From UHGV virus genome UHGV-1347488: a stretch of DNA of 27,147 nucleotides; one strand, 5' to 3'. The translations under genes and the position numbers were made by a program. This DNA is from a virus. Below are positions 5,141 to 25,729 of this stretch, one piece after another (the first letter of the stretch is position 1; every line of letters begins with the position of its first letter). The notes under the pieces are model-generated. The model made no database searches, was not told the origin of the DNA, and worked only from the letters and a program-made list of their open reading frames with translations.

Positions 5141-5166
5141 ATTAGCAAGTCCTCCCCTTTTATGTT

Positions 5167-5334: not shown

Positions 5335-5374
5335 ACAATTTTTCCTTTATTGGAATTGGTGGCGAAGTGCCGGA

Positions 5375-5563
5375 TTAATTTTTTGATTCGAAATATGCCG
5401 ATAATTTGGCAAAAGATTTTTTTCCTAAATTCATTTTGTTCCGCTTAAATCCAGACAGAACATCTTTATTGATACCAGTCACAGTACAAATATAGCTTGC
5501 CTTGACTGCCTGTAACTCATCATTTAATTTTGCTCGTAACTCTTCCTGGGTCAGTTTTATCAT
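5375..5563 (-). CDS. Small helix-turn-helix DNA-binding protein (Cro/XRE-like regulator)
   Basis: 62-aa ORF; HTH-like segment ICTVTGINKDVLSGFKRNK; paralogous to the 5742..5930 product. AAGGAG abuts the ATG (short spacer). Confidence 0.5.
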   Translation of the reverse strand: MIKLTQEELRAKLNDELQAVKASYICTVTGINKDVLSGFKRNKMNLGKKSFAKLSAYFESKN

Positions 5564-5717
5564 CTCCTTCTGTGTAAAATATCATAATTTTTTATGTTTA
5601 AAAAAATAAAAGTCGTAATCATACGCAATGCCCCGCCGCTGTTTGAGGACGGCGAGGTATCACATGGGGAAACAAAACGCATTACATCTAAACGCAACAC
5701 CTATTATTTATAATAAA

Positions 5718-5733
5718 ACACTTGCGCAAGTGT
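5718..5733. promoter_or_regulatory. Perfect 16-bp palindrome ACACTTGCGCAAGTGT (candidate operator, or stem of a minus-strand terminator)
   Basis: Read directly; sits 9 bp past the stop of the 5742..5930 HTH gene and about 155 bp upstream of the 5375..5563 HTH gene; followed on the minus strand by a T/A-rich tract. Confidence 0.4.
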
Positions 5734-5741
5734 AATATTAC

Positions 5742-5930
5742 CTATGGGATTATAACTTTTGATAAATACTCCTCAAGCCTGACTGCATCCTCTTCGCAGA
5801 GAAACAGTTTGCCAGTCTTAAAATTTGATAAAATGTACTGTGGAATTCCGGTCTTTTTTGAAATAGCTTTTGCAGCAAGACCATCATTCAGTACAGCTAT
5901 AAGATGATTTTTTAAATCAGTCTGATTCAT
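5742..5930 (-). CDS. Small helix-turn-helix DNA-binding protein (Cro/XRE-like regulator), paralog of 5375..5563
   Basis: 62-aa ORF; segment ISKKTGIPQYILSNFKTGK aligns with the other small HTH protein; ATG with RBS AAAGGAGAG. Confidence 0.55.
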   Translation of the reverse strand: MNQTDLKNHLIAVLNDGLAAKAISKKTGIPQYILSNFKTGKLFLCEEDAVRLEEYLSKVIIP

Positions 5931-5976
5931 GCTGCTCTCCTTTCCCGTATTTCACAATTATCTTTTAAAAAATTTT

Positions 5977-6001
5977 AGGAAGAGGAATCTCTGTCCTCTC
6001 C
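5977..6001 (-). terminator. Candidate intrinsic terminator downstream of the 999-aa gene
   Basis: Minus-strand imperfect hairpin GGGAGAGGACAGAGATTCCTCTTCC followed by TAAAATTTTTT. Confidence 0.3.
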
Positions 6002-6087
6002 CTATTCTATGTTGACGTTTTGTAATTTTTGCACTAAATAAGTCAATAATTACTGGCGTTTTTCTGTGCATATTTTACACTTCAAAA

Positions 6088-10877: not shown

Positions 10878-12098
10878 TTACGCCAACTGTTTTCCTCTAG
10901 CGGAATAAACTTCTGCCCCGGTCAGACCATCAACACACTGTTCAGTGATAAGCACCCTCTTTGCACCCTTCAAGTCTGGCACAGAAAACATAACATCTTG
11001 CATGGCTGACTCAATGATGCTGCGCAGACCTCTTGCACCAGATTTTTGCTTAATTGCTTTTTCCGCAATTTTCCTTAAAGCTTCGTCTGAAAACTCCAGA
11101 TTGACCTTATCCAACTTCATCAGTTCGGCATACTGTTTGGTCAGTGCATTCTTCGGTTCTGTAAGGATACGAAGCAAAGCATCTTCATCAAGTGGCATTA
11201 AGGTTGCCAACACCGGAATACGCCCCATTAACTCAGGAATTAGTCCGTAGTGGACTAAATCGGCATCAGTTATTTTGCTGAAATCGAAACTATCTGAAGG
11301 TGATGTGTTCACTGAATTGAACCCGATGGAATTACCAGAAGATTCCTGACCTACGATTTTCTCAATCCCATCAAATGCCCCACCAACGATAAATAGAATG
11401 TTGGAAGTATCCATACGCACTGTAGCCGCATTTGGGTGTTTGCGTCCGCCGCTTAGCGGTACATCAGCTATGGTTCCCTCCAGAATCTTTAAGAGTGCCT
11501 GTTGTACTCCTTCACCGGAAACATCACGAGTGATAGAAGTGTTCTCGCCTTTTCTGGAAAGCTTATCAATCTCGTCAACGTAAACGATCCCCCGCTGTGC
11601 CAGGTCAAGATCGTGATTGGCGGCATCATATAAGCGGAGTAGGACATTCTCGACATCCTCGCCAACATAACCAGATTCGGTCAGACAAGTGGCATCAGAC
11701 ATAGCAAAGGGAACGCCTAAGAATTTTGCCAGTGATTGAACCAGATATGTCTTACCGCTTCCTGTTGGCCCTACAAGCATGATGTTTGACTTCTGGATTT
11801 CTACACAGGATTTTGATTTCTGTGAGATGCGCTTGTAATGATTGTAAACCGCCACAGACAGAATCTTCTTTGCATCGTTCTGGCCGATGACATACTCGTC
11901 AAGATGCTTCTTAATCTGACTAGGAGTTGCCAACTTGAAGCTGTTTGATTTTGCGGATTCTTCCTTGTCCTGAAATGCTTCTTCTGCTTGCATAGAACAC
12001 TCACGGCAGAGACAGCCATATTTACCCTTGATGAGATAGTCAACCTGAGACTCGTCCTTGCCGCACATAAAACAGTAGTTAATGCGTTTTGTTGCCAT
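10878..12098 (-). CDS. clpX: ATP-dependent Clp protease ATP-binding subunit ClpX (phage-borne)
   Basis: N-terminal C4 zinc-binding domain (CFMCGK…CLCRECS), Walker [17 protein letters not shown] motif, Walker B VYVDEIDK, sensor and arginine-finger region (SGARGLR); ATG with RBS AAAGGAGAG. Confidence 0.9.
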
Positions 12099-12934: not shown

Positions 12935-13940
12935 AATGCCTTTCTCCTTTATTTTGATATATGTATATAGAAGATTCTCTATCTGGAATCTTGTTTTATC
13001 GTGATGATGAAGGTTACGGCAAATTTACCAGAACCTTTGTATGGGGATCGGGTTTACCAAATTCGGTAAAGTTGGTTTATCATGCTCCAATTATGGATAA
13101 TATTATGTAAACAAAATAGACATATCCAGAAATGGACATTAATCTTCGATATCTATTTTTGCTATTTGTCCGCATATTTCCCATCTGTCCGTATATCCAC
13201 CATCGGGAACAGAACATTAAGAAACACCTGTATTTCCTAGCGTTTCTCATCGTACCAACTAGAAACTGAATCATCTGCCAACGCCAGACTAGCACTCTGA
13301 GCCAAAACAGTCTTAATGTCTTTAATTCCCAGTATTTATATAGGATTTAAGCATTTCCAAGTAAATTCAGGCTTATCGGTAGTGACATCGCAAAAAGGAA
13401 GTAAATCCTTACCTTTTCAGCATTGGTATCCCATAAATTGAACATCTAAAAATTCAAAAATTTTATACTTTTGACCGTAAAACCCTTGTAATCCTTACAT
13501 TTTTACGATACCGATTTTCTTTCCGAAGTCTCCATGATTTTTCACATTTTTGCGATAAACCTATCCGGCACGATTTCTGGCCCAGTTATTCCAACGCTCA
13601 CACTTAGCTTCTGCTTTCTCCTGTGTATTAAATACACACCGTCTACGGATACCAACACAAGAATCAGTATCAGATACATGAATCTTTACTCTTAGATTCT
13701 CCTTGCCTAGATCAGATACAACAATTCCAGTCTGCACCTTCCAGATGCGTCGATTCTTCCGTTTAACCAGAAACCTTTGAATGAACCACACCTGCTGTCC
13801 CTCTGTAAATACCAACTGAATCACTCTCCTTTTGATTTGGACATTTTGTTTATGTCTAAATTTGCACGATAGCTCACCCAAATGAGCCTTATTTTACTGG
13901 ACTTTAGACACATTCTATAGGGAAAAATGGGACCATGGAA

Positions 13941-14305
13941 TTTGCATTATCCAAAGTCCTACAAAGCTAGTAAATAAGCCATTTTTACGATTATATATAC
14001 GCAAAATTCATACCTATCATTTTGCATTATTCCGTTCATTTCATACATTGTTCACTCATTGAATTTTTAAAATTCTTATTGCTTTGCCATCGAAAATGTG
14101 CTAAAATAAGTTCAACTAAAAAGATTATGCAAATGATTTTTTAAGTTATTTTTTTGCATTATAGAAAGTCGAGAAACCCTTGATTTTACTAGCTTTTAGA
14201 CACAATTAACATGCAAAATTCATACCATGGATTTGCATTATAGAAAGTCGGAAATCCCTTGTAATTACTGGGTTTTGGTGACAATTAACATGCAAAATTC
14301 ATACC
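13941..14305. repeat. Array of about 74-bp direct repeats with 5-bp spacers (period about 79 bp); candidate origin or iteron/promoter array
   Basis: Units 13941..14014, 14153..14226 and 14232..14305 each start TTTGCATTAT and end (A/C)GCAAAATTCATACC; spacers ATGGA/TATCA; a diverged longer unit at 14020..14152 and a partial unit at about 13900..13940. The last two units are about 85% identical. Confidence 0.7.
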
Positions 14306-14342
14306 TATGTATAGAATGTATTATATACCGATAGGTATACGT

Positions 14343-16250
14343 CTAAGCCATTAGCTTAATGGTAATATCAATATCATCTTTACTCTTATCAATTCCAACC
14401 ACTTTATCAGTATTAGGATTATCAACAATCACACCACCATCATTACAAGTATTATCATTATACTTATTAGTGTGTTTTTGCGAGTAAATATTATACCAAT
14501 TTCCTTTATCACTTCTATTCTGTATCACATCAATACACTGCGCAGATTGCAGGTTCTTAATTGCTTCAATAATGTTCGGTTTTCCGAAATGAAGAATCCT
14601 ATCCATTTCCTCAATCGTACATGCACGACCATTTCTGATGTTGTTTACGATACACAGAAATACCTTAAATTCATTCTGTGTAATCTGCTTCGCAATGAAC
14701 GCTCTTGCCGCACTGTAGTAAAACTCAATATACTTATCATTAAAGTCTTTCAATCCTCTTTTGATTTTAATTTTCGTCAAATCAAAGGAATTTTTTGACT
14801 TGTTTTCCGGCTCTACTAATTCAATACAATGATGCGCTACCAAGCGTTCTAAAGTATCTTTAAATGTTCTTATATCCATGCAAAGTTGCCATTTCCCATG
14901 TATTTTGTACTGCATTTTCATCTTCAAATTTCTAATTGTAAACGGTGTTTTAGAACCGCTCTTGATGTATTTATAAAGGATCGTCATAATCAGATATTCA
15001 AATCCGCTCATGCTGATGTCCTTGTCATTTCTCAGCCGATTATCCGTCAACAGCTTCTGTGACATCTTCACGCCAATATCTTCCTGAATGGAAATAACTT
15101 TCTTCTGAACAGCTTGCATACAATGGAGTTTGTCGCACTGCGCCTGTACCATCTTTTTCACACGTTCATCCGGTATCTGCTCCCAACAACCATTTAAACG
15201 GTAAATGTTTTCATGATCCAGATATGCGTCAATATCTTTCTTTACCTCATTTGAATTCTTCGGTGGTCTACACCTGGTATTCCAGTCAAGACAGATTTCA
15301 CGAACTTTTGATTCTGTGTATCCGTCATATCTCAGCATGGAAACAATACGGCCTAACCAAGTATTGCGCTCACCCTCGTCTGCTCCCTCACGAAGAACTT
15401 TTTCAGTACATAAACACGGATATGTTTTCAGATTAAGGCCATCACCGGAATAATCCCATTTTTCCAACGGTTTGCTTTCTAGTTGGAACTGTTCTTTTTT
15501 CAGTTCGTTTTCTACTCTTCTTCTGATAAATGCGGTGTCCATAGGGTGATAACCTGCCACTTGATTATCATGCTTCTTGTAATGGTCAACTTCCTTTACA
15601 AGCGGAAACTTGCCGTTTTCATCTGGATGTTTGCGGTTATAGGTGCATGGGATTCTGGCTACCTGTGTCACCTTGCAAGCGTTTGTATCTGCTCCTACTA
15701 TCTGGCAAATCATCTTGTTCAGTTCTGATAAATCTCTGACCTTACAAGTCGGTTTCACAATCACATAGAAGTGGTATCCATGTCCAGAATCATACACTGC
15801 ATGGACAAATAAATCTGGTAATTTATCCCTAATCAGCTGCCGAAATTCTTCTACACTGTGGAGATTTTCATGGTCTTTTTTATCGAAATCAATGAATAAA
15901 ACCCTCTGCTGTCTCATATTGGCTTCACGCCTATGTAATTCATTTTTGCGGTCATATTTTACTGTTGCAAGTGCATTATAAATATGATAATTGTGTCTGT
16001 ACTTCATGATACACTCAACGTACTGGTCAAAATTTTTTACATAGCGGTGGAACTTAATCTCGTTTCCATCTTTATCTAATGCCGGATTACCCTGTTCATC
16101 CGTTTTTGCAATGAACAAACAAATAAATTCTTTTTCTTCCAGTTTGGAAGGGTATAACATCTCATAGTATCTTTTTAAATGATTGCTAATAGTAGTACCT
16201 TCTTTCTTACCATTCTGTCGGTAGTAAAATTGTTGTTCTTGTGTCCTCAT
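14343..16250 (-). CDS. Archaeo-eukaryotic-type primase-polymerase (PrimPol-like replication protein)
   Basis: 635-aa ORF with AEP motifs in order: VLFIDFDKKD (DxD), DSGHGYHFYV (sxH) and ARIPCTYNRK (R-x-P-G/C-x-N); large C-terminal domain. The start has a weak RBS and is overlapped by the upstream ORF. Confidence 0.65.
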   Translation of the reverse strand: MRTQEQQFYYRQNGKKEGTTISNHLKRYYEMLYPSKLEEKEFICLFIAKTDEQGNPALDKDGNEIKFHRYVKNFDQYVECIMKYRHNYHIYNALATVKYDRKNELHRREANMRQQRVLFIDFDKKDHENLHSVEEFRQLIRDKLPDLFVHAVYDSGHGYHFYVIVKPTCKVRDLSELNKMICQIVGADTNACKVTQVARIPCTYNRKHPDENGKFPLVKEVDHYKKHDNQVAGYHPMDTAFIRRRVENELKKEQFQLESKPLEKWDYSGDGLNLKTYPCLCTEKVLREGADEGERNTWLGRIVSMLRYDGYTESKVREICLDWNTRCRPPKNSNEVKKDIDAYLDHENIYRLNGCWEQIPDERVKKMVQAQCDKLHCMQAVQKKVISIQEDIGVKMSQKLLTDNRLRNDKDISMSGFEYLIMTILYKYIKSGSKTPFTIRNLKMKMQYKIHGKWQLCMDIRTFKDTLERLVAHHCIELVEPENKSKNSFDLTKIKIKRGLKDFNDKYIEFYYSAARAFIAKQITQNEFKVFLCIVNNIRNGRACTIEEMDRILHFGKPNIIEAIKNLQSAQCIDVIQNRSDKGNWYNIYSQKHTNKYNDNTCNDGGVIVDNPNTDKVVGIDKSKDDIDITIKLMA

Positions 16251-16587
16251 TCATATTGGTGCAAATCCAAATTTCTGTACCATTGACAGCATAGGAACCC
16301 ATGATATCCCCATAGCCAGATTTAATAGTTGCTTCATTGATATAAGCATCCTTTTTACAACCGCCCCAATCACAATTAAGGTAACGCCGGAATGCTTTGC
16401 TTAACTCTGGCGAATTCATGTTTAATCCTAATGCTTCAACGCCAGGCGTAATATGAATGCTTCCTGTATAGAACTTTTTTCCATTTTTCTTTGCAGCATT
16501 TAGATTATGCTTTCTTACCGCTTCTGTCTGTGTTTTGAATATTGCTCGAAGCTCTGCCAACTCAATACTTGCTGAATCCATTGCCAT
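16207..16587 (-). CDS. Hypothetical protein (126 aa from the RBS-supported ATG; ORF track shows a longer frame to 16701)
   Basis: ATG (MAMDSAS…) preceded by TTGGAGGGAAG at 7 nt; 3' end overlaps the primase start by 44 nt in another frame. Confidence 0.5.
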   Translation of the reverse strand: MAMDSASIELAELRAIFKTQTEAVRKHNLNAAKKNGKKFYTGSIHITPGVEALGLNMNSPELSKAFRRYLNCDWGGCKKDAYINEATIKSGYGDIMGSYAVNGTEIWICTNMNEDTRTTILLPTEW

Positions 16588-16796
16588 TGCTCTTCCCTCC
16601 AATATTAATAGTGTAGGCGCACCGCCCCTGAATGCAATGCGCCCTGTCTGTCCGTCAATATGTGTGCCAGTATCTTCACTGGAAAAAAGGAGATAAATCA
16701 TATGGCATTTCGTTTGTTGGGGCCAGCCTCATCACTGGTAAATGGTCTGTCCGTCTTTTGGAATTATCAGCTTCGATAATATAGGATTCTCCACTT

Positions 16797-17126
16797 CTAC
16801 GCTTCGATTTTCTTTAAACTATCCAGGCATTCCGGATTCTCAATCTGGCCCTCGACACGGATACAGAAATCAAAGAAACTGCTCATGCGTCCGATGCTAA
16901 ACTCAATGCCTGTCTTGGTTGGCTCATACATCACATCTAGGCCGTCCGCAAGGATACCGGATTCCATATAAAACTCCAAATCCTCTATGAACTTGTCCGG
17001 CGTGATCCGCTGTTGTGGTGTCTGGAAGTCTTTGTTCTGTGCCGTGACTGATGTTACCACGATGACCTTATCTTTGATTGCCTGTAAAAGCTGTTTTCCG
17101 GAAGATCTGATTCCGCTCTTACTCAT
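16797..17126 (-). CDS. Hypothetical protein (109 aa from the RBS-supported start)
   Basis: ATG (MSKSGIRSS…) preceded by AAGAAGGGG at 7 nt; the ORF track extends to 17180 but that start has no RBS. Confidence 0.55.
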   Translation of the reverse strand: MSKSGIRSSGKQLLQAIKDKVIVVTSVTAQNKDFQTPQQRITPDKFIEDLEFYMESGILADGLDVMYEPTKTGIEFSIGRMSSFFDFCIRVEGQIENPECLDSLKKIEA

Positions 17127-17198
17127 AACGCTGCCCCTTCTTATAGAAGCCTGCCGCCGTGCAAGCTCCCATATATACATTCTTCTTTCTGTGTTGGC

Positions 17199-17567
17199 TT
17201 ACTGTGCAAAATAATCTGCCAGTTCTTCCAGACTCATAGGAGTCTCGCCCGCCTGTAACACACTGCTGCTATCTGCAATCAGCCAGCCGGAAGTACCCAA
17301 CACATGCTCTTTTGCTGGCACAAGGTGTAATCCGCTCTTCTTGGCTTTTTCCTCCATCTGTCCCAATGTCAGAATTGGATTCACCTTTACTGCTCTACTT
17401 CCTCTTTCTGAGTTCTCAGCTTCAAAATCTACAATGTCATCATCATCTAAGGTGCGGAATCCCTGCATCTGAATATCGGTCTGATGCACGAAATAATCCT
17501 TGTGGTTATCACCAGTGATGAATCCCCATCCTTTAGTCTTGTCGAATAATTTAACTGTTCCTCTCAT
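17199..17567 (-). CDS. Cold-shock domain protein (CspA-like N-terminal domain with about 55-aa C-terminal extension)
   Basis: MRGTVKLFDKTKGWGFITGD…DYFVHQTDIQ matches the RNP1 (KGFGFI) and RNP2 (VFVHF) motifs of cold-shock proteins; RBS AAAGGAGA 8 nt upstream; about 260-bp untranslated region upstream. Confidence 0.75.
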   Translation of the reverse strand: MRGTVKLFDKTKGWGFITGDNHKDYFVHQTDIQMQGFRTLDDDDIVDFEAENSERGSRAVKVNPILTLGQMEEKAKKSGLHLVPAKEHVLGTSGWLIADSSSVLQAGETPMSLEELADYFAQ

Positions 17568-17830
17568 GATGCTTGTCTCCTTTTTTATAATTTTTTACAT
17601 ACCAGATTCTGTGAACTACATCGGCAATTGAATTACCGAGCATCTGATTACGAAGCATAGCTCCGTAGCTTCAGAGGTGCGTCCATGACACCCGTACTGC
17701 TACCCAGATGGGTTACACAGCTACTTTTATTGTTTTTGTACTACTCAGCCCAGTTACGGCATGATACTTTCTCAAATTGAATAACCGAGGATTTCCACTT
17801 GTTATCAATTTCTTCTGCCACTTCTGGAAA

Positions 17831-18052
17831 TTAAGACATCTTTACAAATTTGTATCCAGTGACTTTGATAGCCCTAGGACTATTTTTTCTGCTGATTAAC
17901 CCTAATTTTTCCAGTTGATTTAGTTTCTTAAAAACTATAGATACGCAGCATTCCGCTTCTTCTGCGATCTCTCTGACTGTTGGTGGATAACCGTTTTCTT
18001 CCAGGTAATCACAGATGAATTTATAAATAAATTCACCCTTATCTGTTATCAT
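17831..18052 (-). CDS. LexA-N-terminal-domain-like winged-HTH protein (73 aa, no peptidase domain)
   Basis: FIYKFICDYLEENGYPPTVREIAEE…VFKKLNQLEKLGLISRK…RAIKV parallels the LexA DNA-binding domain (…G.PPT.REIA…HL.ALE.KG.I…R.I.L); RBS AGAAGGAG. Confidence 0.6.
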   Translation of the reverse strand: MITDKGEFIYKFICDYLEENGYPPTVREIAEEAECCVSIVFKKLNQLEKLGLISRKNSPRAIKVTGYKFVKMS

Positions 18053-18115
18053 GCGTGGCTCCTTCTTGTTTCAATTTTGATGGGTGCCGTTTTCACAGCA
18101 CCCTTGCATTTATAA

Positions 18116-18628
18116 TTACAGTTCTTTTAAAATCTCGCCTAAAATTTCCAGGAATTCTTTGCCATATTGAACCGACTTTTTCTCACAGTATGTAAGATTT
18201 TCCTGTAAAACAGACTGCATATACTCATCAATTTCTTCTAAGTCAATCCCAAATTTCTGCTTCAATGCATCGGATAATTTCATTTTTTTCTCTGCCATAC
18301 AAAGTACAAACGTTTCAGTTTCTTCTCTCGTCAGATCAAAATACCGATACACTGCCTCCATTACCTGCAACAGTTTTTCACATGATTCTGTGTTGTACTG
18401 TTCCTCTTTGAATCTCGCCATATAAAAGGCTTTATCCACATCTGTTAAACAATATTGCTGCATCACTATTTTGGGAAAAATCAGCATCTCTTCGGTAATT
18501 CTAACGCCTTTAGTTTTCATGTAAAGAAGGGACTTTTTTATTACTGTAGTTGCTTCCAGTAATGTATAATCCTCATCTTCGTCTAATAAAAACTCTCTCC
18601 ATACTTCTTTGATATTTGTTTTTTTCAT
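18116..18628 (-). CDS. Hypothetical protein (170 aa from the RBS-supported ATG)
   Basis: ATG (MKKTNIKEVW…) with AAGGAG 9 nt upstream; the ORF-track start at 18679 is a TTG without an RBS. Confidence 0.6.
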   Translation of the reverse strand: MKKTNIKEVWREFLLDEDEDYTLLEATTVIKKSLLYMKTKGVRITEEMLIFPKIVMQQYCLTDVDKAFYMARFKEEQYNTESCEKLLQVMEAVYRYFDLTREETETFVLCMAEKKMKLSDALKQKFGIDLEEIDEYMQSVLQENLTYCEKKSVQYGKEFLEILGEILKEL

Positions 18629-18684
18629 AATGCAAAACTCCTTTTCTTTATTTATTTTATATACAGCTGATGTCATCAAGGCAT

Positions 18685-18831
18685 CTACTTAACTGTCTTC
18701 TTTACTGGTTCTTCCGTCCATCTCACAGAGCCATCAGAATTGATGGGAATTTCAACTTTTTTGCCGCTGTCATATTCCAGAACTTTTGATAATCTGCCAT
18801 TATCGGCCTTAATCCAAATATGCTTAATCAT
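18685..18831 (-). CDS. Small hypothetical protein (48 aa), absent from the ORF track
   Basis: Translated by hand: MIKHIWIKADNGRLSKVLEYDSGKKVEIPINSDGSVRWTEEPVKKTVK; ATG preceded by AAGGAGA at 7 nt; fits exactly between flanking genes. Confidence 0.4.
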   Translation of the reverse strand: MIKHIWIKADNGRLSKVLEYDSGKKVEIPINSDGSVRWTEEPVKKTVK

Positions 18832-18843
18832 TATCTTGTCTCC

Positions 18844-19269
18844 TTAGATATACTGTCTGACTTCCTCTAAATCCTTTGGATTATTCGGATTGTAATAGGA
18901 ACAGTAAATCTTACGGCTTCCATGCCTGGTCTCCATCACAGCAACCAACTCTGGATTGTCAAGCTCATCGTAACCGATTGCAACTACTCTCGTAACAGAT
19001 AAAGCAGCGTTGTTCCGCTCGTATACCGCAAGATTGAACATCATGTTATAGATGTTGCCGAAAGCGAACTGTTTCTGATCCGGCGTGCAGTTCAAAAAAT
19101 CCTTCCAACTGTTGATTTTTGCCAGTTCATAATTGTGAGTCAAAATGATGTTCAATGACTCTACAGCCAATGGATTCTTTAAATGGCTGCTAATCTCTCC
19201 ATTTACATATCTGATGGGTCTTGATTTGGGAATCAGGTCATTTTTGGTAAAAATCTTATAATTCAGCAT
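18844..19269 (-). CDS. Hypothetical protein (141 aa)
   Basis: ATG with RBS AAAGGAGA 6 nt upstream; no recognisable motif. Confidence 0.65.
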   Translation of the reverse strand: MLNYKIFTKNDLIPKSRPIRYVNGEISSHLKNPLAVESLNIILTHNYELAKINSWKDFLNCTPDQKQFAFGNIYNMMFNLAVYERNNAALSVTRVVAIGYDELDNPELVAVMETRHGSRKIYCSYYNPNNPKDLEEVRQYI

Positions 19270-19338
19270 CGTGTATCTCCTTTAGGAAGTGCGGCAAGCG
19301 GAATCCCCACTCACCACACTGTATACTAGATTCTCTAC

Positions 19339-20031
19339 TTACTCCGGTTTCTTGCAGTAAACCAACTTGACCGTGGTAAACGGCTGACCGTAAGGGAAGA
19401 TACGGAAGCAGCGCATATCTCCGGTGGTCTTGGACTGAAACTCGTTGCAGCTGTCATCGAATACAGTCAGGGCATAATTGGTACCATCAGCATTGACCCG
19501 GAGTTTCAGATTGTCCTCATCACATTCATCAATGAAAGCATTCCCGCCGTAGATGTTCATGTTCAGCGCAAAGCTGTCAGACACATTAACAGATACCAGA
19601 TAGTAACCGTTCGTGCCGTGAAGTGCTTCGTCCATGAAGGTCATCATATTGTCCAGGTCAACTTCATGCCAACCTTCTAAATCATCGGCTGACCACTCGT
19701 TAAAGAATGTCAGGCACAATTTCTGATCGTCCGGCAAGTCGAATTGCAGAATCAAATAGTTGCCCTCTTCTTCATCTTCTTTCAGGGTAGCGTTGGTCAT
19801 ATCTTCATATCTGATTGCGATACCGTTTGTACCGTCAAGAGTGCCGGACTGGTAGAACTCAATCTTATCCTCAAACAGCTCACATCTGTTGGCATACAGC
19901 TTTACTACATCGTCACCCTCAGCGTCCGTTACAACAACCTGTGTGATATTGTAGGCTTCAACTAAGGATTTGATGTCCTCTGCATTAATCTTTTTGGCAC
20001 TGGTTTTAACTCTCTTTACTACTTCGTTCAT
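19339..20031 (-). CDS. Hypothetical acidic protein (230 aa) downstream of the tubulin-like GTPase gene
   Basis: ATG with RBS GAGGAAA; no recognisable motif; its position could correspond to an accessory partition factor, but that is unproven. Confidence 0.65.
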   Translation of the reverse strand: MNEVVKRVKTSAKKINAEDIKSLVEAYNITQVVVTDAEGDDVVKLYANRCELFEDKIEFYQSGTLDGTNGIAIRYEDMTNATLKEDEEEGNYLILQFDLPDDQKLCLTFFNEWSADDLEGWHEVDLDNMMTFMDEALHGTNGYYLVSVNVSDSFALNMNIYGGNAFIDECDEDNLKLRVNADGTNYALTVFDDSCNEFQSKTTGDMRCFRIFPYGQPFTTVKLVYCKKPE

Positions 20032-20072
20032 GTGTTATTTCCTCGATTTTCCTATATATTGGTCGTTCCGTC

Positions 20073-21179
20073 CTACTTACTGATTCTTCTGGCTTTCAGT
20101 TGCTCTAACGCTGACAGGCCGCTACTAGTCGGCTTATGCTCTGGTTCCTTCTTGACCGCAAACACACTGGATGTTCTGGCGGTGCGCACCTGTGTAAGAG
20201 CCTTCAAAGAGTTCTGCACGCTCTCAGCTTCTTTTTCTACGGATTCTGCTAACGCATCAATCCGGCTGTACGGCATCACCAGGCCGCTAAGGATCACCAC
20301 ATTTTCACCGGAATCTGAAACATATCCGTGATATTCGGTCGGTGCTGTACCTACGGCTTTCCGGAGTTCCGCAATATCAATCTTGCTCTCTTTTGCTGAT
20401 ACCGCTTCGGAAATACCCATAATGCTGACCGTCTTATCTTCCCGCTGTGCAAAAATATTGCTCTCACGGGTCAGAATATCCACGATATAACCCGTTGTGC
20501 CATTGGCTGCATTAGTGGCAACGATTACAGAAAATGACGGACAATGTAAGCAGCTTTCAATCTCTGCCAAATCCATATTGCCGTCCTGGGATTTATTGTT
20601 AATGCAAAGCACTGCTGTCATCAGTCTGGCGAATGCTCGGTTGATCTGCAACTTCTCACCGGAGTTATTGTCCAGCATGAAAATGCTTCCCAAACTCGGC
20701 TTTAATTCCTCGATTTCCTCAAAGGTCTGTCTGGCATTATCTCTGATTTTTAAGGATTCCGTATCTGCCGGAATAACCACAACCAGACACACTTTGTATC
20801 CCATCTCTAACAGGATTCTTGCCAACATTGGCCCCATTGCAGAGCCGGTTCCACCGCCCATTGAAAATGCGATAAATACTGTGCTGCCCTCGATTATGTA
20901 CTGCTGCAATTCATCCAGAATACTATCAACATTTTCCGCAAGTGCATCTAAGCTGCGCTCCCTGTTGCCTGCTGCCCCATTACAGTTTTTCACATGGATT
21001 TTGTGGGACAGATTAACCGCCGATAAATCCTCGGTACTGGTGTTGATACCAACAAAGGATACGCTGTCTTTGCTGCCATCCAGTTCCATAACCTTCTTTT
21101 CAACCTCAGAAATGACCTGGCATCCGCACTGACCGCATCCGATAAAGGTAGCTTTTAATCTCGTATTTAATTTTTTCAT
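20073..21179 (-). CDS. Tubulin/FtsZ-superfamily GTPase, TubZ/PhuZ-like (putative partition or positioning cytoskeletal protein)
   Basis: T1-loop-like GCGQCGCQ near the N-terminus and tubulin signature-like FSMGGGTGSAMGP; internal ATG (MKKLNT…) with RBS AGAGGAG 7 nt upstream, chosen over the track's 21206 start; begins 4 nt after the stop of the upstream small HTH gene. Confidence 0.7.
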   Translation of the reverse strand: MKKLNTRLKATFIGCGQCGCQVISEVEKKVMELDGSKDSVSFVGINTSTEDLSAVNLSHKIHVKNCNGAAGNRERSLDALAENVDSILDELQQYIIEGSTVFIAFSMGGGTGSAMGPMLARILLEMGYKVCLVVVIPADTESLKIRDNARQTFEEIEELKPSLGSIFMLDNNSGEKLQINRAFARLMTAVLCINNKSQDGNMDLAEIESCLHCPSFSVIVATNAANGTTGYIVDILTRESNIFAQREDKTVSIMGISEAVSAKESKIDIAELRKAVGTAPTEYHGYVSDSGENVVILSGLVMPYSRIDALAESVEKEAESVQNSLKALTQVRTARTSSVFAVKKEPEHKPTSSGLSALEQLKARRISK

Positions 21180-21183
21180 AGAC

Positions 21184-21444
21184 TTACTCCTCTTGTTCCA
21201 TCTCATCCATCCATTGAATTCCTGTGGAAGTAATATAGTAGGTTTTGGCGTTTAACTGGTTCATACCATATTTGATGTATCCCAGATTAATCAGCTCCTT
21301 TAGATGCTTATAGATAACCTTGTAAGAGTATTTGATACCAATCTCTGCAAGACCCTCTTCAATCATCTTCTGAGTAGCCGCAACTAACTTGCTTCTTGCT
21401 TCCGCATGGAATAGGACGTTGAGAATTTCGTAATTTGTACGCAA
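21184..21444 (-). CDS. Small winged-HTH protein upstream of the tubulin-like gene (TubR-like by position and size)
   Basis: 86-aa ORF with TTG start and AGGAAGG RBS; helix-wing segment YKVIYKHLKELINLGYIKYG…NAKTYYITSTG; arrangement resembles tubR-tubZ operons. Confidence 0.45.
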   Translation of the reverse strand: MRTNYEILNVLFHAEARSKLVAATQKMIEEGLAEIGIKYSYKVIYKHLKELINLGYIKYGMNQLNAKTYYITSTGIQWMDEMEQEE

Positions 21445-21804
21445 ATAAAATCATCCTTCCTATATTCAGTTGTAGTGTTTCTTCTATATAAAGTGTGGGA
21501 AATGCCGCAGCAGAACGCTGACAGCAATTTGACAAATAAAAAAAATCATGATAATATACTTTTGAACATTTGTTACATGGTCGTTTACCAGACGATCACG
21601 TTATTACCATGAAAGCCTTCTGTCATCACGGTGTTACCAGCACCAGACAGGAGGTTTTTCATTTATCTTACCGCTCACTATATATCAAATTGGAACTCTG
21701 TTCCTATCCTGTTTGTTTATTATTGGTTCTGTGTTTCATCTCTGTTGTACCTCTTTTCCTTTGATGGGTTAAGTATAGCACTGTATGATAACCTAGTCAA
21801 GTAG

Positions 21805-21947
21805 TTTTGTATTATTTTTATATTTTTTGTATTATAATATTTTTATGTGTATTATTTTATTGTATTTGCACCAATTTTGTATTATAAAATAGTGTTTTCC
21901 TATTTTATTTAATATCTTCGTTGAAAAAAAACGGATTTTGTATTATT
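21805..21947. repeat. Iterated TTTTGTATTAT(T/A) motif, 5-6 copies (candidate operator or centromere-like repeats)
   Basis: Copies at 21805, 21825, about 21847, 21875 and 21936; the last overlaps the putative promoter of the 21971 gene. Confidence 0.5.
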
Positions 21948-21949
21948 CT
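21921..21949 (+). promoter_or_regulatory. Candidate sigma70-type promoter for the 21971 gene (-35 TTGAAA, 17-bp spacer, -10 TATTCT)
   Basis: Hexamers read directly; followed by RBS GAGGTGAG and the ATG at 21971. Confidence 0.3.
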
Positions 21950-21970
21950 AAACATATGAGGTGAGATAAA

Positions 21971-23083
21971 ATGCTAGGAAAAAAAATTATTTTAAATGAT
22001 GCTATCCGTGATTCTATCACTAGATTTAGGAAAAGCAAAATGAAAGAACACCCCGAATTAACCGCAGATGGCATTTCAGAAAAAATAGGAAGATCTAAGT
22101 CTTGGTTATCTCAAGTAGNNNNNNNNNNNNNNNNNNNNNNNNNNNNNNNNNNNNNNNNNNNNNNNNNNNNNNNNNGAGCAGATTTCAATTTTAAATATGA
22201 ATATGATGCAGTAGCCAAACGTGTAGATAATGAAATCATGTTAATAAATGCATTCATTAAACATGGTATTGCAGATGAAAACGGTAATATACTTGATTTC
22301 CATGAGAGTCTACGATTAGAGCAATGTAGAGGTTTTCTTCGACAAGCCGGAAAAATGACAGATTGTTATATTAAGGAATATTTACAAAACCCAATTCAGG
22401 AAATTGAAAAAAAAATTAAAACTGAGATTCATAATGTTTTAATTGAAATTGTTCGATGGATAAACAGAGCTTTTGATGACACTGCTGATTTATTTTCTGA
22501 TGAAGTGTCAACTAAAAATTTATATTGTTTACTGGAAACGGCATATACTATTTTTAATGCTCATTGTGATTATTTCGGCCTAAATCCTTTAACCGCCACA
22601 GATACTGATTTAAAAACCTTAAAGAACAAATTAAATACGGATTGTTTTATAAAACCACGAACGGTATTAAAACCTCTTGATGATTATACAGAATCAGAGT
22701 TCAAGGAAGTGGTTAAAAATTTTTCTTCCGAAGAATATATGCAATGGAAAAACAAGCGCATTTATATTGGTGATGATCCATTTCCTATGACTGTTGGTTT
22801 TATTGATAGTAAAAAAGAACGGCATACCCCACTACACTATATAACTTATCCAGATTTAAATAAAGCTACCGGATTATCTGAAAAGGAATATCTCTATATC
22901 ATTAAGCAAGTTTATTTACAATTTGATATTTTTTATAAAGATTGTCAATCGTTAAGAGATGATTTGGAATTTTATAAAGATGAAAATGATCAGTATTACG
23001 ATGAAATTCAAGAATTAAATGAACGTATAAATGAACTCACCAATAAACTTAATACTGAGTCAGAGAAGCCACCAGAGGAATAA
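21971..23083 (+). CDS. HTH-domain protein with large C-terminal domain of unknown function (370 aa; reading frame interrupted by an N run)
   Basis: RBS GAGGTGAG; N-terminal XRE-like segment (…LTADGISEKIGRSKSWLSQV…); C-terminal coiled-coil-like region; very AT-rich codon usage. Confidence 0.65.
   Translation: MLGKKIILNDAIRDSITRFRKSKMKEHPELTADGISEKIGRSKSWLSQVXXXXXXXXXXXXXXXXXXXXADFNFKYEYDAVAKRVDNEIMLINAFIKHGIADENGNILDFHESLRLEQCRGFLRQAGKMTDCYIKEYLQNPIQEIEKKIKTEIHNVLIEIVRWINRAFDDTADLFSDEVSTKNLYCLLETAYTIFNAHCDYFGLNPLTATDTDLKTLKNKLNTDCFIKPRTVLKPLDDYTESEFKEVVKNFSSEEYMQWKNKRIYIGDDPFPMTVGFIDSKKERHTPLHYITYPDLNKATGLSEKEYLYIIKQVYLQFDIFYKDCQSLRDDLEFYKDENDQYYDEIQELNERINELTNKLNTESEKPPEE
22119..22175. other. 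Run of 57 N (assembly gap or masked segment) inside the 21971..23083 ORF
   Basis: Literal n characters; length is a multiple of 3, so the frame is preserved. Confidence 0.95.
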
Positions 23084-23188: not shown

Positions 23189-24055
23189 TTATTTCAAATA
23201 CAATGGATGGCTATTATCGTCCGCTTCCTTCTCAAAGTCACCATTGAATTTATATTGACCCTGGTGATCGGGTTTACTATTATAAACTTCATAGCCACCA
23301 TTTTCAAAATCTGTGGATAAATACACATCCAATTTGGGACTTTTAAAAACCTGTCTTTTAGGAGATTGTCCATCTCTCTTTTTAGCTTTTCGCTTATTTA
23401 AAGCGGTAAGTTTAGAATCGTATGTATACTTATTTCGTTCTGCAACTTCCATTCCAATTTTATGAAGGGTTGCTATTTTATCATCAATTGAATTAGAACG
23501 TAATATTTCAGATCTCCATTCGTTATATCCATTACACAATACAGATGCTGGAAACTTATTATTAAATGATGGGACAGAAATTTGTATTAATTCATCTTGT
23601 TGAATCCATCTTTTAATATTTGAATCAACTTCCTGATCAAAATTTCCTATAAAAAATATTTTATCATTCAATTGTTTTTGTTGTAACTCTCTATGCCGTC
23701 TATCTTTAATGTATGGGATTACAACAATATTATCTTCTGATATACTTAGAATATATTTTATTTTTCCAACAAAAGCCTTCGTAAAACCGAGATTATTCAA
23801 AGCAATGTCTTCAGCTTCTGACACAAGACCTGCATCATATTTATCTACCTTATGAGTTTTTAAAATTGAATGATTTACCTCTCTGAACCTGGAAGATCTG
23901 TTATATGACTTTGTGGAAGTTGCAAAAGGTTCAAACATAACTAATTTTGCATTGAAAAAATTTTCAACAACTAATAAAAAATCATTCAAGTATTTTTGCT
24001 GTTCAATGCTTGTTTGATAAAATTTTTCATCGATAAGTATTTTATATGTTGGCAT
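23189..24055 (-). CDS. Unknown-function partner protein of the ABC ATPase (288 aa; candidate effector of a two-gene defence-like module)
   Basis: ATG (MPTYKILIDEKF…) with RBS CAGGAGAG; start lies 1 nt after the ATPase stop codon; basic C-terminal region (KRKAKKRDGQSPKRQ); no HNH-type Cys/His pattern. Confidence 0.7.
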   Translation of the reverse strand: MPTYKILIDEKFYQTSIEQQKYLNDFLLVVENFFNAKLVMFEPFATSTKSYNRSSRFREVNHSILKTHKVDKYDAGLVSEAEDIALNNLGFTKAFVGKIKYILSISEDNIVVIPYIKDRRHRELQQKQLNDKIFFIGNFDQEVDSNIKRWIQQDELIQISVPSFNNKFPASVLCNGYNEWRSEILRSNSIDDKIATLHKIGMEVAERNKYTYDSKLTALNKRKAKKRDGQSPKRQVFKSPKLDVYLSTDFENGGYEVYNSKPDHQGQYKFNGDFEKEADDNSHPLYLK

Positions 24056-24056
24056 A

Positions 24057-25487
24057 TCAACTCTCCTGTTTCTGCAAATTTCTATATCCAACATCTATGA
24101 TTTTAGCTGTTTCATTTGAAAATTGATAAAAGAAATTTTCATTTTCACATAATGCCCCGTCAACTTCATCAATCACTATAGGTGTTATAAAAGACATACC
24201 TAATTCATTCTGATCTACAAAATAGATTTGAATTTTATCACGTACCTCTACATCCTCCATATAGCGTCTAACAATTCTATTTACAAAATGATCACTATGA
24301 GTTTCAATAACAACAGATTTATCATGTGTGGAGAGGGATAATAAAAAATCTGCCATTCGCATTTGCATTTTAGGATGCAGGTGAATTTCTGGCTGTTCCA
24401 AAATCAAGGTTTGATTCGAAGACATAATAATTCCTTCGGCTAAAATTGGCAATGACTGACTAATTCCAAATCCAACATCAACCAAATTATGTTTATTTAT
24501 TCTTACTTTTACTAAATCTTGTTGTCTATTATCAAGGAATAGCGTACCTAATTCTAAATATTGCATCCATGAACCAATTAAATCAATAAATTTATTTGAT
24601 TCACATACTGTCTGTGACGGCACATAATTATCTTCCGATTCAGGAGCCATAACACCTACCACAGTATTTTTTTGTTTATTCTTCAATAACAGAGGGGTAT
24701 CTTCACCGGATACACCAACATCAACAACCTTTTTGTCTGCGATATAACGTCTCATAGGATTTTCTCTCAATGGAGCAATATATTGTAATTGAATATACTG
24801 AGATGGAAGAATACTAAAAATTGAAGTTAAAGTTGGAATAAACAATTTTGTAGAAGGATTCATACGTTCTTCGTAAATACTATTTAAAGTCATATTACGA
24901 AAATAACAGATAGCATTGTTAATATTAAAATCTCCTAAATTCCCAGCAACATCTGGGATTTGTGTTCCGCGAACAGTATATGTCTTTTTCCCATTTCTGC
25001 ACAATTCAATTCGTGAATTGATTGAGCCAGTTTTTAATTCTACTTCAATATTAACATCAATGGCATGTAATTTATTTGCATATAAAGAAGCGCCACTATT
25101 ATCAATAGAAACACAATAATTGATGATGAATTTTTCGACATCGTTTCTATAATATAATCTATTCAAATCACGAAACTGAACGTTATCTTTTGAAGCGGTT
25201 TCTTTTGAACGTTTAAGTTCAAAAGTATTGCTAATCGTAAAGAAATTTTCTGAATGTTGATCACACAAAATCTCAGAAAATGTTCCATTGTCTATATATT
25301 TACCGTTAAATAACATTTGGTCGGATGTATTAGTATCTTCAAAAGTTTGCTTTAACATCAGCAAGCTTTTTAAAATAGAACTTTTACCGCTGCTATTTAC
25401 ACCGCACAATACGGTCAGTGGCGCAATCTCTATATCGGTCTTATCTTTAAAGCACTTATAATTTTCCAAACTTATAGATTTCAGCAT
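24057..25487 (-). CDS. AAA15/AAA21-type ABC ATPase (OLD/AriA/PtuA/AbiLi-like)
   Basis: N-terminal I.SI.L.NYKCF with Walker A GVNSSGKS; Q-loop-like QYIAPLRE; signature-like GFGISQSLPILAEG; Walker B LILEQPEIHLHP; H-loop ETHSDH. ATG (MLKSISL…) preceded by GGAGGT at 6 nt. Confidence 0.8.
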   Translation of the reverse strand: MLKSISLENYKCFKDKTDIEIAPLTVLCGVNSSGKSSILKSLLMLKQTFEDTNTSDQMLFNGKYIDNGTFSEILCDQHSENFFTISNTFELKRSKETASKDNVQFRDLNRLYYRNDVEKFIINYCVSIDNSGASLYANKLHAIDVNIEVELKTGSINSRIELCRNGKKTYTVRGTQIPDVAGNLGDFNINNAICYFRNMTLNSIYEERMNPSTKLFIPTLTSIFSILPSQYIQLQYIAPLRENPMRRYIADKKVVDVGVSGEDTPLLLKNKQKNTVVGVMAPESEDNYVPSQTVCESNKFIDLIGSWMQYLELGTLFLDNRQQDLVKVRINKHNLVDVGFGISQSLPILAEGIIMSSNQTLILEQPEIHLHPKMQMRMADFLLSLSTHDKSVVIETHSDHFVNRIVRRYMEDVEVRDKIQIYFVDQNELGMSFITPIVIDEVDGALCENENFFYQFSNETAKIIDVGYRNLQKQES

Positions 25488-25729
25488 TCCCATACCTCCA
25501 TAATCTCCTTTCATTTTACCAAAATTTACCAGTTACTACAATGAGAACGTGTGTATATAGATTCGATATTTTAAAATATTTTTTTATGAAAGAAGCTGCC
25601 GGAATATACCAACGGCTCCCGCATTATTCCTTTCCAATCTTCCACTTAGCAAGTTCTTCCCCCAGGACCCAGCTCAATTCTTTGTACTGCTCCGGTGTGA
25701 GGGTCGTGCCGCATTTTTCTTCCACATTC

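Follow-up and report, generated by a model that had tools for sequence, protein, structure and literature searches.

The DNA that was analysed (the window; 27,147 nucleotides of UHGV virus genome UHGV-1347488) carried two neighbouring minus-strand genes, encoding a 73-amino-acid (aa) winged helix–turn–helix (wHTH) protein and a 122-aa cold-shock-domain (CSD) protein. The best explanation for the region as a whole, to which we assign a probability of roughly 0.6, is a phage-plasmid with an independent regulator derived from LexA and a CSD-fusion nucleic-acid binder, with a recombination joint as the spacer between them. Judged from sequence, the most likely role of the 73-aa protein is that of a phage regulator that recognises DNA sites of its own, as opposed to an SOS-box mimic or immunity repressor.

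The element combines a tailed phage with a plasmid-type TubR/TubZ partition system and is thus a phage-plasmid of ~42–45 kb, known from metagenome contigs. It also encoded a YonO-like RNA polymerase. No megablast match to positions 14000–22000 was obtained among GenBank phages. The wHTH and CSD genes were ordinary accessory genes in a string of small mosaic genes, located on the same strand 3′ of tubRZ and running on into replication genes. At the head of this co-directional string was the tubR/tubZ block (20073..21444, minus strand). TubZ (20073–21206, minus strand) matched Pfam Tubulin with 78 bits, and the tubR-like gene upstream of it (21184–21444, minus strand) encoded an 86-aa protein with weak HTH_45 and PHROG regulator matches. 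Iterated repeats of the centromere type (TTTTGTATTAT; 21805–21947) were located upstream of tubRZ. With a TubZ GTPase, a small winged-helix TubR and upstream repeats, the context was that of a type III (TubZRC) system. The tubRZ-headed gene order was the same in the related loci L001, L002, L178 and L179. Divergent from tubR, a gene at 21971–23083 encoded a 370-aa protein, the relatives' versions of which gave weak HTH_31/HTH_3 matches. Both the wHTH and the CSD gene are real; homologues of the two proteins (41–98% identity) preserved their length and motifs.

The 73-aa gene (18052..17831, minus strand) was preceded by a Shine–Dalgarno sequence, AAGGAG (18059..18064, minus strand), 6 nt 5′ of the ATG. 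Its product was predicted to form three helices (residues 4–20, 26–33 and 37–49), followed by a wing and a C-terminal tail, GYKFV. The sequence-only reading had proposed the LexA N-terminal wHTH layout without an autoprotease domain, and this was confirmed, as Pfam, the PDB sequence search and the predicted fold all ranked LexA first. Pfam LexA_DNA_bind (PF01726) scored 38.2 bits (cut-off 23.7, E 1.2e-9), ahead of HTH_36 (24.9 bits) and MarR (24.3 bits). The top PDB sequence match was Thermotoga maritima LexA (3k2z, E 3.4e-8, residues 3–65). The AlphaFold2 (AF2) model had a pLDDT of 88.5, with a low-pLDDT tail in the monomer, and its top eight Foldseek matches in the PDB were all LexA (TMq 0.82–0.86). 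With three independent methods all placing LexA first and its hallmark GYPPT-x-REIA present, the counter-case of a better fit to MarR or ArsR did not hold. The NCBIfam-type LexA model TIGR00498 covered only the N-terminal part (38.8 bits, cut-off 110.95). The best phage-family match was PHROG 3502 (function unknown; E 5.8e-12).

The protease half of LexA was missing. Peptidase_S24 gave no match in the 73-aa protein, whereas the real LexA proteins of L029 and L031 scored 114–115 bits, and a tblastx comparison of the downstream spacer with loci carrying a real LexA revealed no coding remnant of the LexA C-terminal half. Since the cleavage module is absent, RecA-linked cleavage of the protein is impossible. 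The protein shared its fold with LexA (PF01726; PDB 3k2z, 3jso, 1lea), as well as GYPPT-x-REIA and the wing strand RAIKV, and was ~40% identical to the LexA N-domains of T. maritima and of the Firmicute type. Unlike LexA, it had no linker, Ala-Gly cleavage site, S24 Ser-Lys protease or dimerisation domain, but it had an additional invariant GYKFVKE tail and a diverged recognition helix. The 73-aa protein is encoded by a phage early-operon gene, whereas LexA is a chromosomal SOS regulator. A truncated LexA pseudogene was ruled out by the conservation of length and tail across 28 homologue clusters. TubY was ruled out as an identity as well, being MerR-like with a coiled coil. Stand-alone winged helices of ~70 residues are also found among the PapI/FaeA/PefI regulators (PDB 2jt1), and in the structure search PefI came ninth (E 1.2e-3), ahead of every other non-LexA fold but a weaker match than LexA. 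PapI-type proteins are enterobacterial co-regulators of fimbrial phase variation that work with Lrp. Pfam FaeA (PF04703) did not match the 73-aa protein at E ≤ 0.1; such a match existed only for the relative P0020, whose NCBI name is ‘FaeA/PapI family’.

The homologue clusters were all 63–99 aa in length, and a 24-member alignment consisted of the single-domain form with GYPPT-x-EIA and a C-terminal RAIKVxGYKFV. Residues G21, Y22, P23, P24, T25, E28, I29, A30, R60, I62, V64, G66, Y67, K68, F69 and V70 were invariant. The recognition helix (helix 3) was the most variable segment, with a column entropy of 1.70 bits compared to 0.54 bits for GYPPT..EIA and 0.31 bits for the nearly invariant tail, RAIKVxGYKFVKE. 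The distant members P0020 and P0024–P0028 retained a LexA-like recognition helix (S-T-S-x-V/A) and may recognise LexA-type operators. In temperate phages and phage-plasmids, stand-alone wHTH genes occupied regions devoted to early functions, maintenance or replication, and 43 dereplicated stand-alone relatives had early-region neighbours involved in replication, recombination and regulation. The gene was located in a tubRZ-led operon in L001–L008 and L178, and followed a resolvase or integrase in L010–L012 and L016. In prophages of the Mediterraneibacter type, it was on the lytic side after Bro-N/ORF6C, and a separate CI-like repressor was present. Where CI-like repressors were visible, the wHTH family was located apart from them. 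In a search of genome contigs, chromosomal LexA dominated and a single stand-alone relative was found, in a Faecalimonas MAG. A tblastn search of phages with the wHTH protein mainly retrieved LexA-like N-domains in unannotated records.

Two further roles of the 73-aa protein were considered. As an uncleavable LexA mimic, it would bind LexA operators belonging to the host or to co-resident prophages and keep SOS genes repressed after RecA-stimulated cleavage of LexA. The protein is clearly LexA-derived (37–53% identity to real chromosomal LexA N-domains) without the cleavage module, some family members retained a LexA-like recognition helix, and in 4–5 loci a more distant stand-alone subgroup had YolD genes and genes for SOS-type Y-family polymerases as neighbours. 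Additionally, phages damp the SOS response through other means: GIL01 gp7 is a LexA co-repressor, and the Listeria phage protein AriS also modulates SOS (PMC9043618). These proteins illustrate the interference with LexA/RecA signalling behind the mimic idea, but they are not LexA-domain proteins and bind LexA or inhibit RecA instead of replacing LexA on DNA (PMC9043618). The N-terminal, base-contacting half of helix 3 argued against the mimic: CCVSIVFKK matched KSASTAQFH of real Firmicute-type LexA at one of nine positions and differed at eight. A common SOS-box target would also be expected to conserve helix 3, the family's most variable segment. Cheo-like sites, the search for which had been suggested together with the SOS-box idea, occurred in the window at or below chance (3 found versus 5.4 expected, and 8 versus 8.2), with the reservation that a Cheo-type box may not be that of the host. 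Occupation of SOS boxes by the 73-aa protein is therefore disfavoured and seems unlikely. The proposal that the protein controls lysogeny (immunity) as the element's own repressor fared similarly. The protein belongs to a small DNA-binding type, had a weak second match to PHROG 362 (‘transcriptional repressor’), and an identical protein carries the JGI name ‘repressor LexA’. However, the gene was the seventh of the co-directional string, deep in the operon after tubRZ and away from any divergent promoter, whereas the position of the 370-aa gene divergent from tubR is more usual for a master regulator. In integrated prophage relatives, the CI-like HTH_3 repressor was separate, and the wHTH gene was on the Cro/antirepressor side. 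The gene was also gained and lost as a module, as observed for L004, L179 and many TubZ relatives. An immunity function is thus disfavoured too, and we regard it as improbable.

The CSD gene (17567..17199, minus strand; stop codon 17199..17201) had an AAGGAG ribosome-binding site (RBS) 9 nt upstream (17577–17582). As the sequence-only reading had stated, its product was a CspA-type CSD protein with a C-terminal extension. Residues 1–64 (17376..17567, minus strand) contained the RNP1-like motif KGWGFI and the RNP2-like motif YFVHQ, and matched Pfam CSD (PF00313) with 72.8 bits. K12, G13, G15, F26 and H28 were invariant in the family alignment. Residues 1–64 form the canonical CSD with RNP1/RNP2 motifs shared with CspA, CspB and CspE (PF00313; PDB 1g6p, 1csp, 1mjc), and the domain was most similar to RNA-chaperone and antiterminator Csps. 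In NCBIfam, the protein was nearest to the antiterminator CspE, with every Csp equivalog score under its cut-off (64.6 versus 120). Unlike CspA-type proteins, which consist of a single domain of ~65–70 aa, the 122-aa protein was double in length, carried a rare 57-aa domain and was phage-encoded. The gene also differed from the CspA type in that it had no conserved long 5′ untranslated region (UTR). Mycobacterium tuberculosis CspB (PDB 9xw3) resembled it in having a CSD plus extra C-terminal sequence. Other phage CSD proteins exist, namely PHROG 729 and CspD of Vibrio phage pVa5. The identity of a retron Se72/CSD_V effector was rejected, as no reverse transcriptase was present among the Pfam-scanned window ORFs and the scores were below cut-off.

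The extension of ~57 aa (residues 65–122; 17202..17375, minus strand) was conserved in a family of CSD proteins of 107–141 aa. It was modelled with an AF2 pLDDT of 75–93 as helix–strand–(short helix)–strand–strand–helix, with a conserved GMSLEEL-x-DYF at the end. Pfam and PDB sequence searches returned no match for it. Among 1.84 billion representative proteins, seven real matches were found, of which six followed a CSD and one was a stand-alone protein of 68 aa. Based on the model, the extension is a rare domain, predicted with confidence to be folded, of unknown function and with essentially no relatives outside the lineage. An IMG/VR scan with the CSD protein as a single query returned nothing; relatives were obtained with an alignment as the query. 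As expected of a real gene, many of the codon changes between the CSD gene and its relatives were synonymous; relative to L179, 19 were synonymous and 11 non-synonymous.

The two genes were 263 nt apart (17568–17830), which agrees with the leader of about 260 nt that had been noted upstream of the CSD gene, but its status as a leader was not supported. The first 221 nt of the spacer (17610..17830, minus strand) were linked to the wHTH gene, with 99.5% identity in L004, where this flank was followed by a convergent gene and no CSD gene. The last ~43 nt (17568..17610, minus strand), including the RBS, were linked to the CSD gene, with 88.6% identity in L179, where the wHTH gene was absent and 46 nt separated the CSD gene from the end of an unrelated 112-aa ORF upstream of it. 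The comparison showed the spacer to be a recombination joint of these two parts and not a conserved 5′ leader. Across relatives, the gaps upstream of the CSD gene were 263, 149, 147, 46, ~20 and −4 nt; by this comparison the gene is normally packed tightly in the operon behind a strong RBS. The spacer had previously been likened to thermosensing csp leaders, and a structured 5′ UTR would make CSD expression temperature-dependent. Its length, a fold somewhat more stable than that of shuffled sequences (z −1.8; 6 of 200 shuffles equal) and the precedent of Escherichia coli cspA, which has a long regulatory leader, are in line with this suggestion. It conflicts with the mosaic structure, in which linkage to the CSD gene was limited to the last ~43 nt and the first 221 nt persisted without it, and with the unalignable sequence in the relatives' shorter gaps. 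Rfam gave nothing at the gathering threshold for the whole window and nothing meaningful at E ≤ 5 for 17100–18200. Sample and organism names suggest a source in the gut, a habitat of constant temperature. The comparison of loci thus largely refuted the thermosensing leader, which we consider highly improbable.

A further possibility was that the CSD protein, alone or together with the wHTH protein, assists the TubRZ (type III) partition machinery as an accessory part. In L007, tubR, tubZ, wHTH and CSD genes abutted or overlapped as one unit. TubZ was located 0.5–3.5 kb upstream on the same strand in 15 of the 23 closest IMG/VR CSD loci, and a CSD gene was present within 5 kb downstream in 19 of 75 TubZ loci. 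Type III partition systems are also known to use an additional DNA-binding protein, TubY (PMC7762940). However, all 19 CSD-positive TubZ loci came from clades closely related to that of the window and none from more distant TubZ clades, the close TubZ relatives L362, L363, L370 and L387 had no CSD gene, and the genes between tubZ and CSD varied freely. No paper linking TubZ to cold-shock proteins was found in the literature searched. Because the positives were restricted to related clades and close relatives were without a CSD gene, the linkage is explained by common descent within a mosaic phage lineage, and a role in partitioning is unlikely. The wHTH gene was present in four of the 75 TubZ loci. 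By sequence comparison, neither gene appeared to be a conserved TubZRC component; the wHTH–CSD pairing was lineage-specific, and the CSD gene followed tubRZ more often, in related clades only.

Within the preferred reading of a phage-plasmid with its own LexA-derived regulator, the LexA DNA-binding domain has become an independent family of small phage proteins. The family has kept the LexA scaffold (three helices, wing and GYPPT-x-EIA) and combines a variable recognition helix with an additional strand at the C terminus, GYKFV(K/R)E, that hardly varies. The 73-aa protein would bind specific DNA sequences and regulate early/middle promoters of the phage, with an operator specificity particular to each lineage. 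The conserved tail may supply the dimerisation or partner contact that LexA obtains from its protease domain, and its low pLDDT in the monomer model is as expected for an interface strand. A precedent and functional model is T7 Gp5.7, a very small DNA-binding phage protein (7 kDa) of winged-helix-like fold, which tunes phage transcription and represses those promoters of the phage genome that host RNAP uses (PMC5569994). T7 is a phage of another type with another host, and the likeness is functional, without a claim of sequence kinship. The 122-aa protein is a CspA-type CSD whose nucleic-acid-binding surface is largely intact, joined to a rare domain predicted to be well folded. It may serve as an RNA chaperone/antiterminator or as a single-strand binder that aids expression or replication of the element.

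A more far-reaching combination of these ideas is tentative and, in our estimate, unlikely. The GYKFVKE family would be a phage-borne, RecA-proof LexA descendant in which the invariant C-terminal strand takes over the dimer interface from the protease domain. After LexA cleavage, members whose recognition helix is LexA-like would bind anew to LexA operators in the host or in rival prophages, and diverged members such as the 73-aa protein would have been retargeted to phage promoters. The CSD-plus-new-domain protein would then be a dedicated RNA/single-stranded-DNA cofactor for the phage-plasmid's transcription, given its YonO-like RNA polymerase, or for its maintenance.

For annotation, the pipeline label ‘repressor LexA’ would wrongly imply an SOS-cleavable switch on the element. 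The non-cleavable stand-alone LexA-domain family, with its variable recognition helix and invariant tail, is a defined subject for DNA-binding work in gut Lachnospiraceae-type phages, in which regulation is almost unstudied. The comparison of loci also removes the RNA-thermometer account, as a long ‘leader’ can arise from module shuffling alone. Being small, confidently folded and essentially without relatives outside the lineage, the 57-aa domain attached to the CSD is of modest promise for structural or functional work.

The spacer contained further sequence signals. A weak sigma-70-like promoter, TTCACA-17 nt-AATTAT (17587..17615, minus strand; 9 of 12 positions), was located just upstream of the CSD gene. 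L179 did not keep the T of its putative −10 element, and the promoter scan yielded fewer such sites across the region than chance predicts. A terminator scan found none. The 11-mers common to the spacer and other intergenic regions were only A/T-rich promoter-like strings. The sole candidate site for the 73-aa protein, found in one lineage only, was an 18-nt direct repeat together with a near-palindrome in the 3′ flank of the wHTH gene. Copy A of the repeat (ATCCTCGGTTATTCAATT; 17775..17792, minus strand) and copy B (ATGCTCGGTAATTCAATT; 17626..17643, minus strand) were 149 nt apart. Their identity of 16/18 was reached by none of 300 dinucleotide shuffles (maximum 14). The copies of the repeat core CTCGGTWATTCAATT and of the half-site TCGGYAATT were unique to these positions when the window and all loci were searched. 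In IMG/VR, a search for core and half-site yielded 99 stretches with a single copy each among the matches listed, which look like chance. The 19-bp near-palindrome (TCGGTAATTCAATTGCCGA; 17621..17639, no strand assigned) overlapped copy B. Its 16/19 match was marginally above chance (reached by 13 of 300 shuffles), and in the predicted RNA structure it paired into a hairpin of 8 bp, making it a candidate protein-binding site or RNA hairpin.

The element is a tailed phage with a plasmid-type partition system. It encodes a tape-measure protein (18–4121), a phage ClpX-like ATPase with a ClpX zinc finger (10878–12098, minus strand), a 635-aa PriCT-containing primase-like protein (14343–16250) and TubZ (20073–21206), with a small TubR-like winged-helix gene just ahead of it (21184–21444). 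A 999-aa protein (6088–9087, minus strand) matched the Pfam RdRP family (PF05183) with 54.5 bits and no NCBIfam family. It may be a YonO-like single-subunit phage RNA polymerase. Metagenome contigs of up to ~45 kb carried the identical 73-aa winged-helix protein (wHTH) in the same gene order; no GenBank phage matched the window at the DNA level.

The wHTH gene (18052..17831, minus strand) has an AAGGAG motif 6 nt 5' of its ATG, and its product is most similar to the LexA N-terminal domain by three independent methods. In Pfam, LexA_DNA_bind scored 38.2 bits (cut-off 23.7) versus 24.9 for HTH_36 and 24.3 for MarR. The best phmmer match in the PDB was T. maritima LexA (E 3.4e-8), with the next matches at E > 0.008. 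With the AlphaFold model (pLDDT 88.5), the best eight Foldseek matches were LexA chains (TMq 0.82–0.86), followed by PefI, DtxR and MntR. Since LexA ranked first throughout and the LexA hallmark GYPPT-x-REIA was present, the LexA layout proposed in the sequence-only reading was upheld over a MarR or ArsR assignment. Identity to two real Firmicute-type LexA N-domains was 41% overall. The autoprotease domain was absent, as had been proposed: the ORF ends at residue 73, TIGR00498 scored 38.8 (cut-off 110.95) and tblastx of the downstream spacer detected no coding remnant of a protease half. In contrast, real LexA proteins (loci L029 and L031) scored 114–115 bits for Peptidase_S24 in the same searches. 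The protein is of LexA-domain ancestry without the cleavage and dimerisation module, and adds a member to a known kind, phage proteins that consist of a lone LexA-type winged helix and resemble PHROG 3502. A broken gene was ruled out by 28 homologue clusters, all of 63–99 aa, with shared invariant residues (G21, Y22, P23, P24, T25, E28, I29, A30, R60, I62 and V64, and at the extreme C-terminus G66, Y67, K68, F69 and V70). An inverted repeat, GGGTGCTG-TGAAAA-CGGCACCC (18079–18100, minus strand), lies between a 187-aa ORF and the wHTH ribosome-binding site without a following T-run; it is not conserved in the relative loci L008 and L178, where the genes abut.

Across 24 family members, mean column entropy was 1.70 bits in the recognition helix (37–49), 0.54 bits in the GYPPT..EIA turn and helix 2, and 0.31 bits in the C-terminal tail (65–71), which had low confidence in the monomer model. 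Helix 3 was variable and the tail invariant family-wide. These sequence statistics point to a family that keeps the DNA-binding scaffold and a conserved interface while the specificity-determining helix diversifies. In the window protein, the N-terminal half of helix 3 shared only one of nine positions with real LexA (CCVSIVFKK versus KSASTAQFH); the distant homologues P0020 and P0024–P0028 retained an S-T-S-x-V/A helix, much nearer to LexA. Occupation of SOS boxes, suggested earlier, is disfavoured, and Cheo-type sites showed no enrichment across the window (allowing up to two mismatches, CGAACN4GTTCG gave 3 sites versus 5.4 expected; allowing up to one, GAACN4GTTC gave 8 versus 8.2). The protein would instead regulate phage promoters in a sequence-specific manner and may oligomerise or dock via its tail; the invariant GYKFVKE tail is a small curiosity.

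The family occupies early-operon positions. Genes of the window lineage are arranged as tubR-tubZ-230-141-48-170/187-wHTH-CSD, where CSD is the cold-shock-domain gene, with replication genes next. In L007 (wHTH 64% identical), tubR, tubZ, wHTH and CSD abut or overlap, and in L010–L012 and L016 a small resolvase/integrase precedes wHTH. In integrated prophages of the Mediterraneibacter type, wHTH lies on the lytic side, 3' of a Bro-N/ORF6C antirepressor, and a separate CI-like HTH_3 repressor with a Cro-like gene is found upstream. Most ORFs in 80 IMG/VR loci with wHTH relatives were of 68–100 aa, a few being real LexA. After dereplication, 43 stand-alone members had mixed early-region genes as neighbours (HTH_3, DnaB, IstB, D5_N, Prim-Pol, resolvase, integrase, ORF6N/C, methylase, ligase, YopX). 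These positions argue against an immunity repressor and fit an early or middle regulator, so the suggestion that wHTH is the element's own repressor is disfavoured. T7 Gp5.7 provides a precedent for a phage repressor that is a winged-helix protein of similarly small size (PMC5569994). A distant stand-alone subgroup adjoined Y-family polymerase (IMS) and YolD genes at 4–5 loci. At L033–L035, L049, L055 and L058, a ~70-aa LexA-domain gene lay directly 3' of a Y-family (IMS/UmuC-like) polymerase gene, with YolD at one locus; these are SOS-mutagenesis-type cassettes with a LexA-domain-only gene.

The 263 nt between wHTH and CSD (17568–17830) had been likened to thermosensing csp leaders. When this spacer was compared by blastn with all fetched loci, the alignments revealed a mosaic. 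The first 221 nt after the wHTH stop (17830–17610) matched L004 at 99.5%, where a convergent RNase_H/exonuclease gene follows instead of CSD. Nucleotides 221–263 (17610–17568) matched L179 at 88.6%, a locus without wHTH in which an unrelated 112-aa ORF lies 46 nt 5' of CSD. The spacers of L008 and L178 (wHTH 84% identical) were 147–149 nt and alignable to the window over the first 24 nt only, the two genes overlap by 4 nt in L007, and in more distant relatives a small Zn-ribbon gene precedes CSD by ~20 nt. This pattern limits the CSD-specific part to at most ~45 nt, including the ribosome-binding site. With no Rfam match in the spacer and a fold z-score of −1.8, the thermosensing-leader interpretation is not supported. 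In most IMG/VR relatives (L100–L120; e.g. L104 4765–4980), a ~70-aa CxxC...CxxC zinc-ribbon ORF fills the slot 5' of CSD in place of wHTH. The wHTH-linked part contains an 18-nt direct repeat (17792–17775 and 17643–17626; 16/18 identical), and none of 300 dinucleotide shuffles exceeded 14 identical positions. Its second copy falls within a 19-bp near-palindrome, TCGGTAATTCAATTGCCGA, which was marginal by shuffling (13/300) and lies directly upstream of a weak sigma-70-like match. Confined to this lineage and with no further copy in the window, the repeat/near-palindrome may serve as a binding site, perhaps one for wHTH itself.

The 122-aa CSD protein (17567..17199, minus strand; AAGGAG 9 nt upstream) had intact cold-shock motifs and, as the sequence-only reading had it, a C-terminal extension. 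Residues 65–122 were conserved in a family of 107–141 aa ending in GMSLEEL-x-DYF, with a confidently predicted helix-strand-(short helix)-strand-strand-helix fold. Pfam and PDB sequence searches gave no match for the extension, and structure searches matched the cold-shock part alone. Exhaustive phmmer against 1.84 billion representative proteins returned only nine matches, seven of them real, all behind a cold-shock domain except one 68-aa stand-alone protein. The protein belongs to the known phage cold-shock-domain proteins and would serve the element as a chaperone of RNA, as an antiterminator or by binding single strands; its rare, orphan C-terminal domain is a small curiosity. L178 carried tandem 122-aa CSD-plus-extension genes (5001–5369 and 5477–5845), the second more diverged. 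In L179, a ClpP protease gene (5446–6030) lies immediately 3' of CSD; with the ClpX-like ATPase of the lineage, some members encode a complete ClpXP.

A CSD gene was found within 5 kb in none of the 80 IMG/VR loci with wHTH relatives, and wHTH in none of the 23 closest CSD loci, 15 of which had tubZ 0.5–3.5 kb upstream on the same strand. Among 75 TubZ loci, 19 had CSD within 5 kb downstream, all in TubZ clades near the window lineage; CSD was missing from some close TubZ relatives and from all distant clades. Counted from all three sides, wHTH-CSD adjacency is restricted to the window lineage and L007, L008 and L178. For the broader tubZ-CSD linkage, common descent within a mosaic phage-plasmid lineage is the best explanation, and a partition-accessory role is disfavoured. 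A literature search found no paper linking TubZ to cold-shock proteins, and TubY, the additional factor known from type III systems, has a MerR-like domain and a coiled coil (PMC7762940), unlike both proteins.

The iteron TTTTG(T/C)ATTAT occurred in at least four copies 5' of tubR (21805–21947), in what looks like the tubC centromere, and in 4–5 copies ~80 nt apart (13940–14242) in the gap directly downstream of the primase-like gene. The shared motif suggests that one protein, perhaps TubR, binds both sites, or that centromere and origin are linked. The replication module 3' of wHTH-CSD-109 aa was exchanged among near-identical relatives: L001 (8588–10138) encodes a 516-aa DEAD/ResIII helicase with DUF5659 in place of the 635-aa primase-like protein of the window and L002 (7803–9710). 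Divergent from tubR, a 370-aa protein (21971–23083, plus strand) matched no family in Pfam, NCBIfam, PHROGs or PADLOC; its relatives had weak HTH_31/HTH_3 matches, and it may be the master regulator of the element or a TubY-analogue. The gene pair at 23189–25514 (minus strand) fitted the PADLOC models NsnB (AAA_15/AAA_21 ATPase, E 4e-65) and NsnC (E 1e-9), likely an anti-phage defence cassette beside the regulatory region. Downstream of tubZ, a 46–51-aa protein without a match in family searches, ..W(I/L)R.D..GKLS.V.EY..G..V.IP(I/L)N.DGS(I/V).W.. (window 18685–18831, minus strand; L016 9179–9319; L107 3126–3269), was kept across quite divergent relatives, its position better conserved than that of wHTH or CSD.
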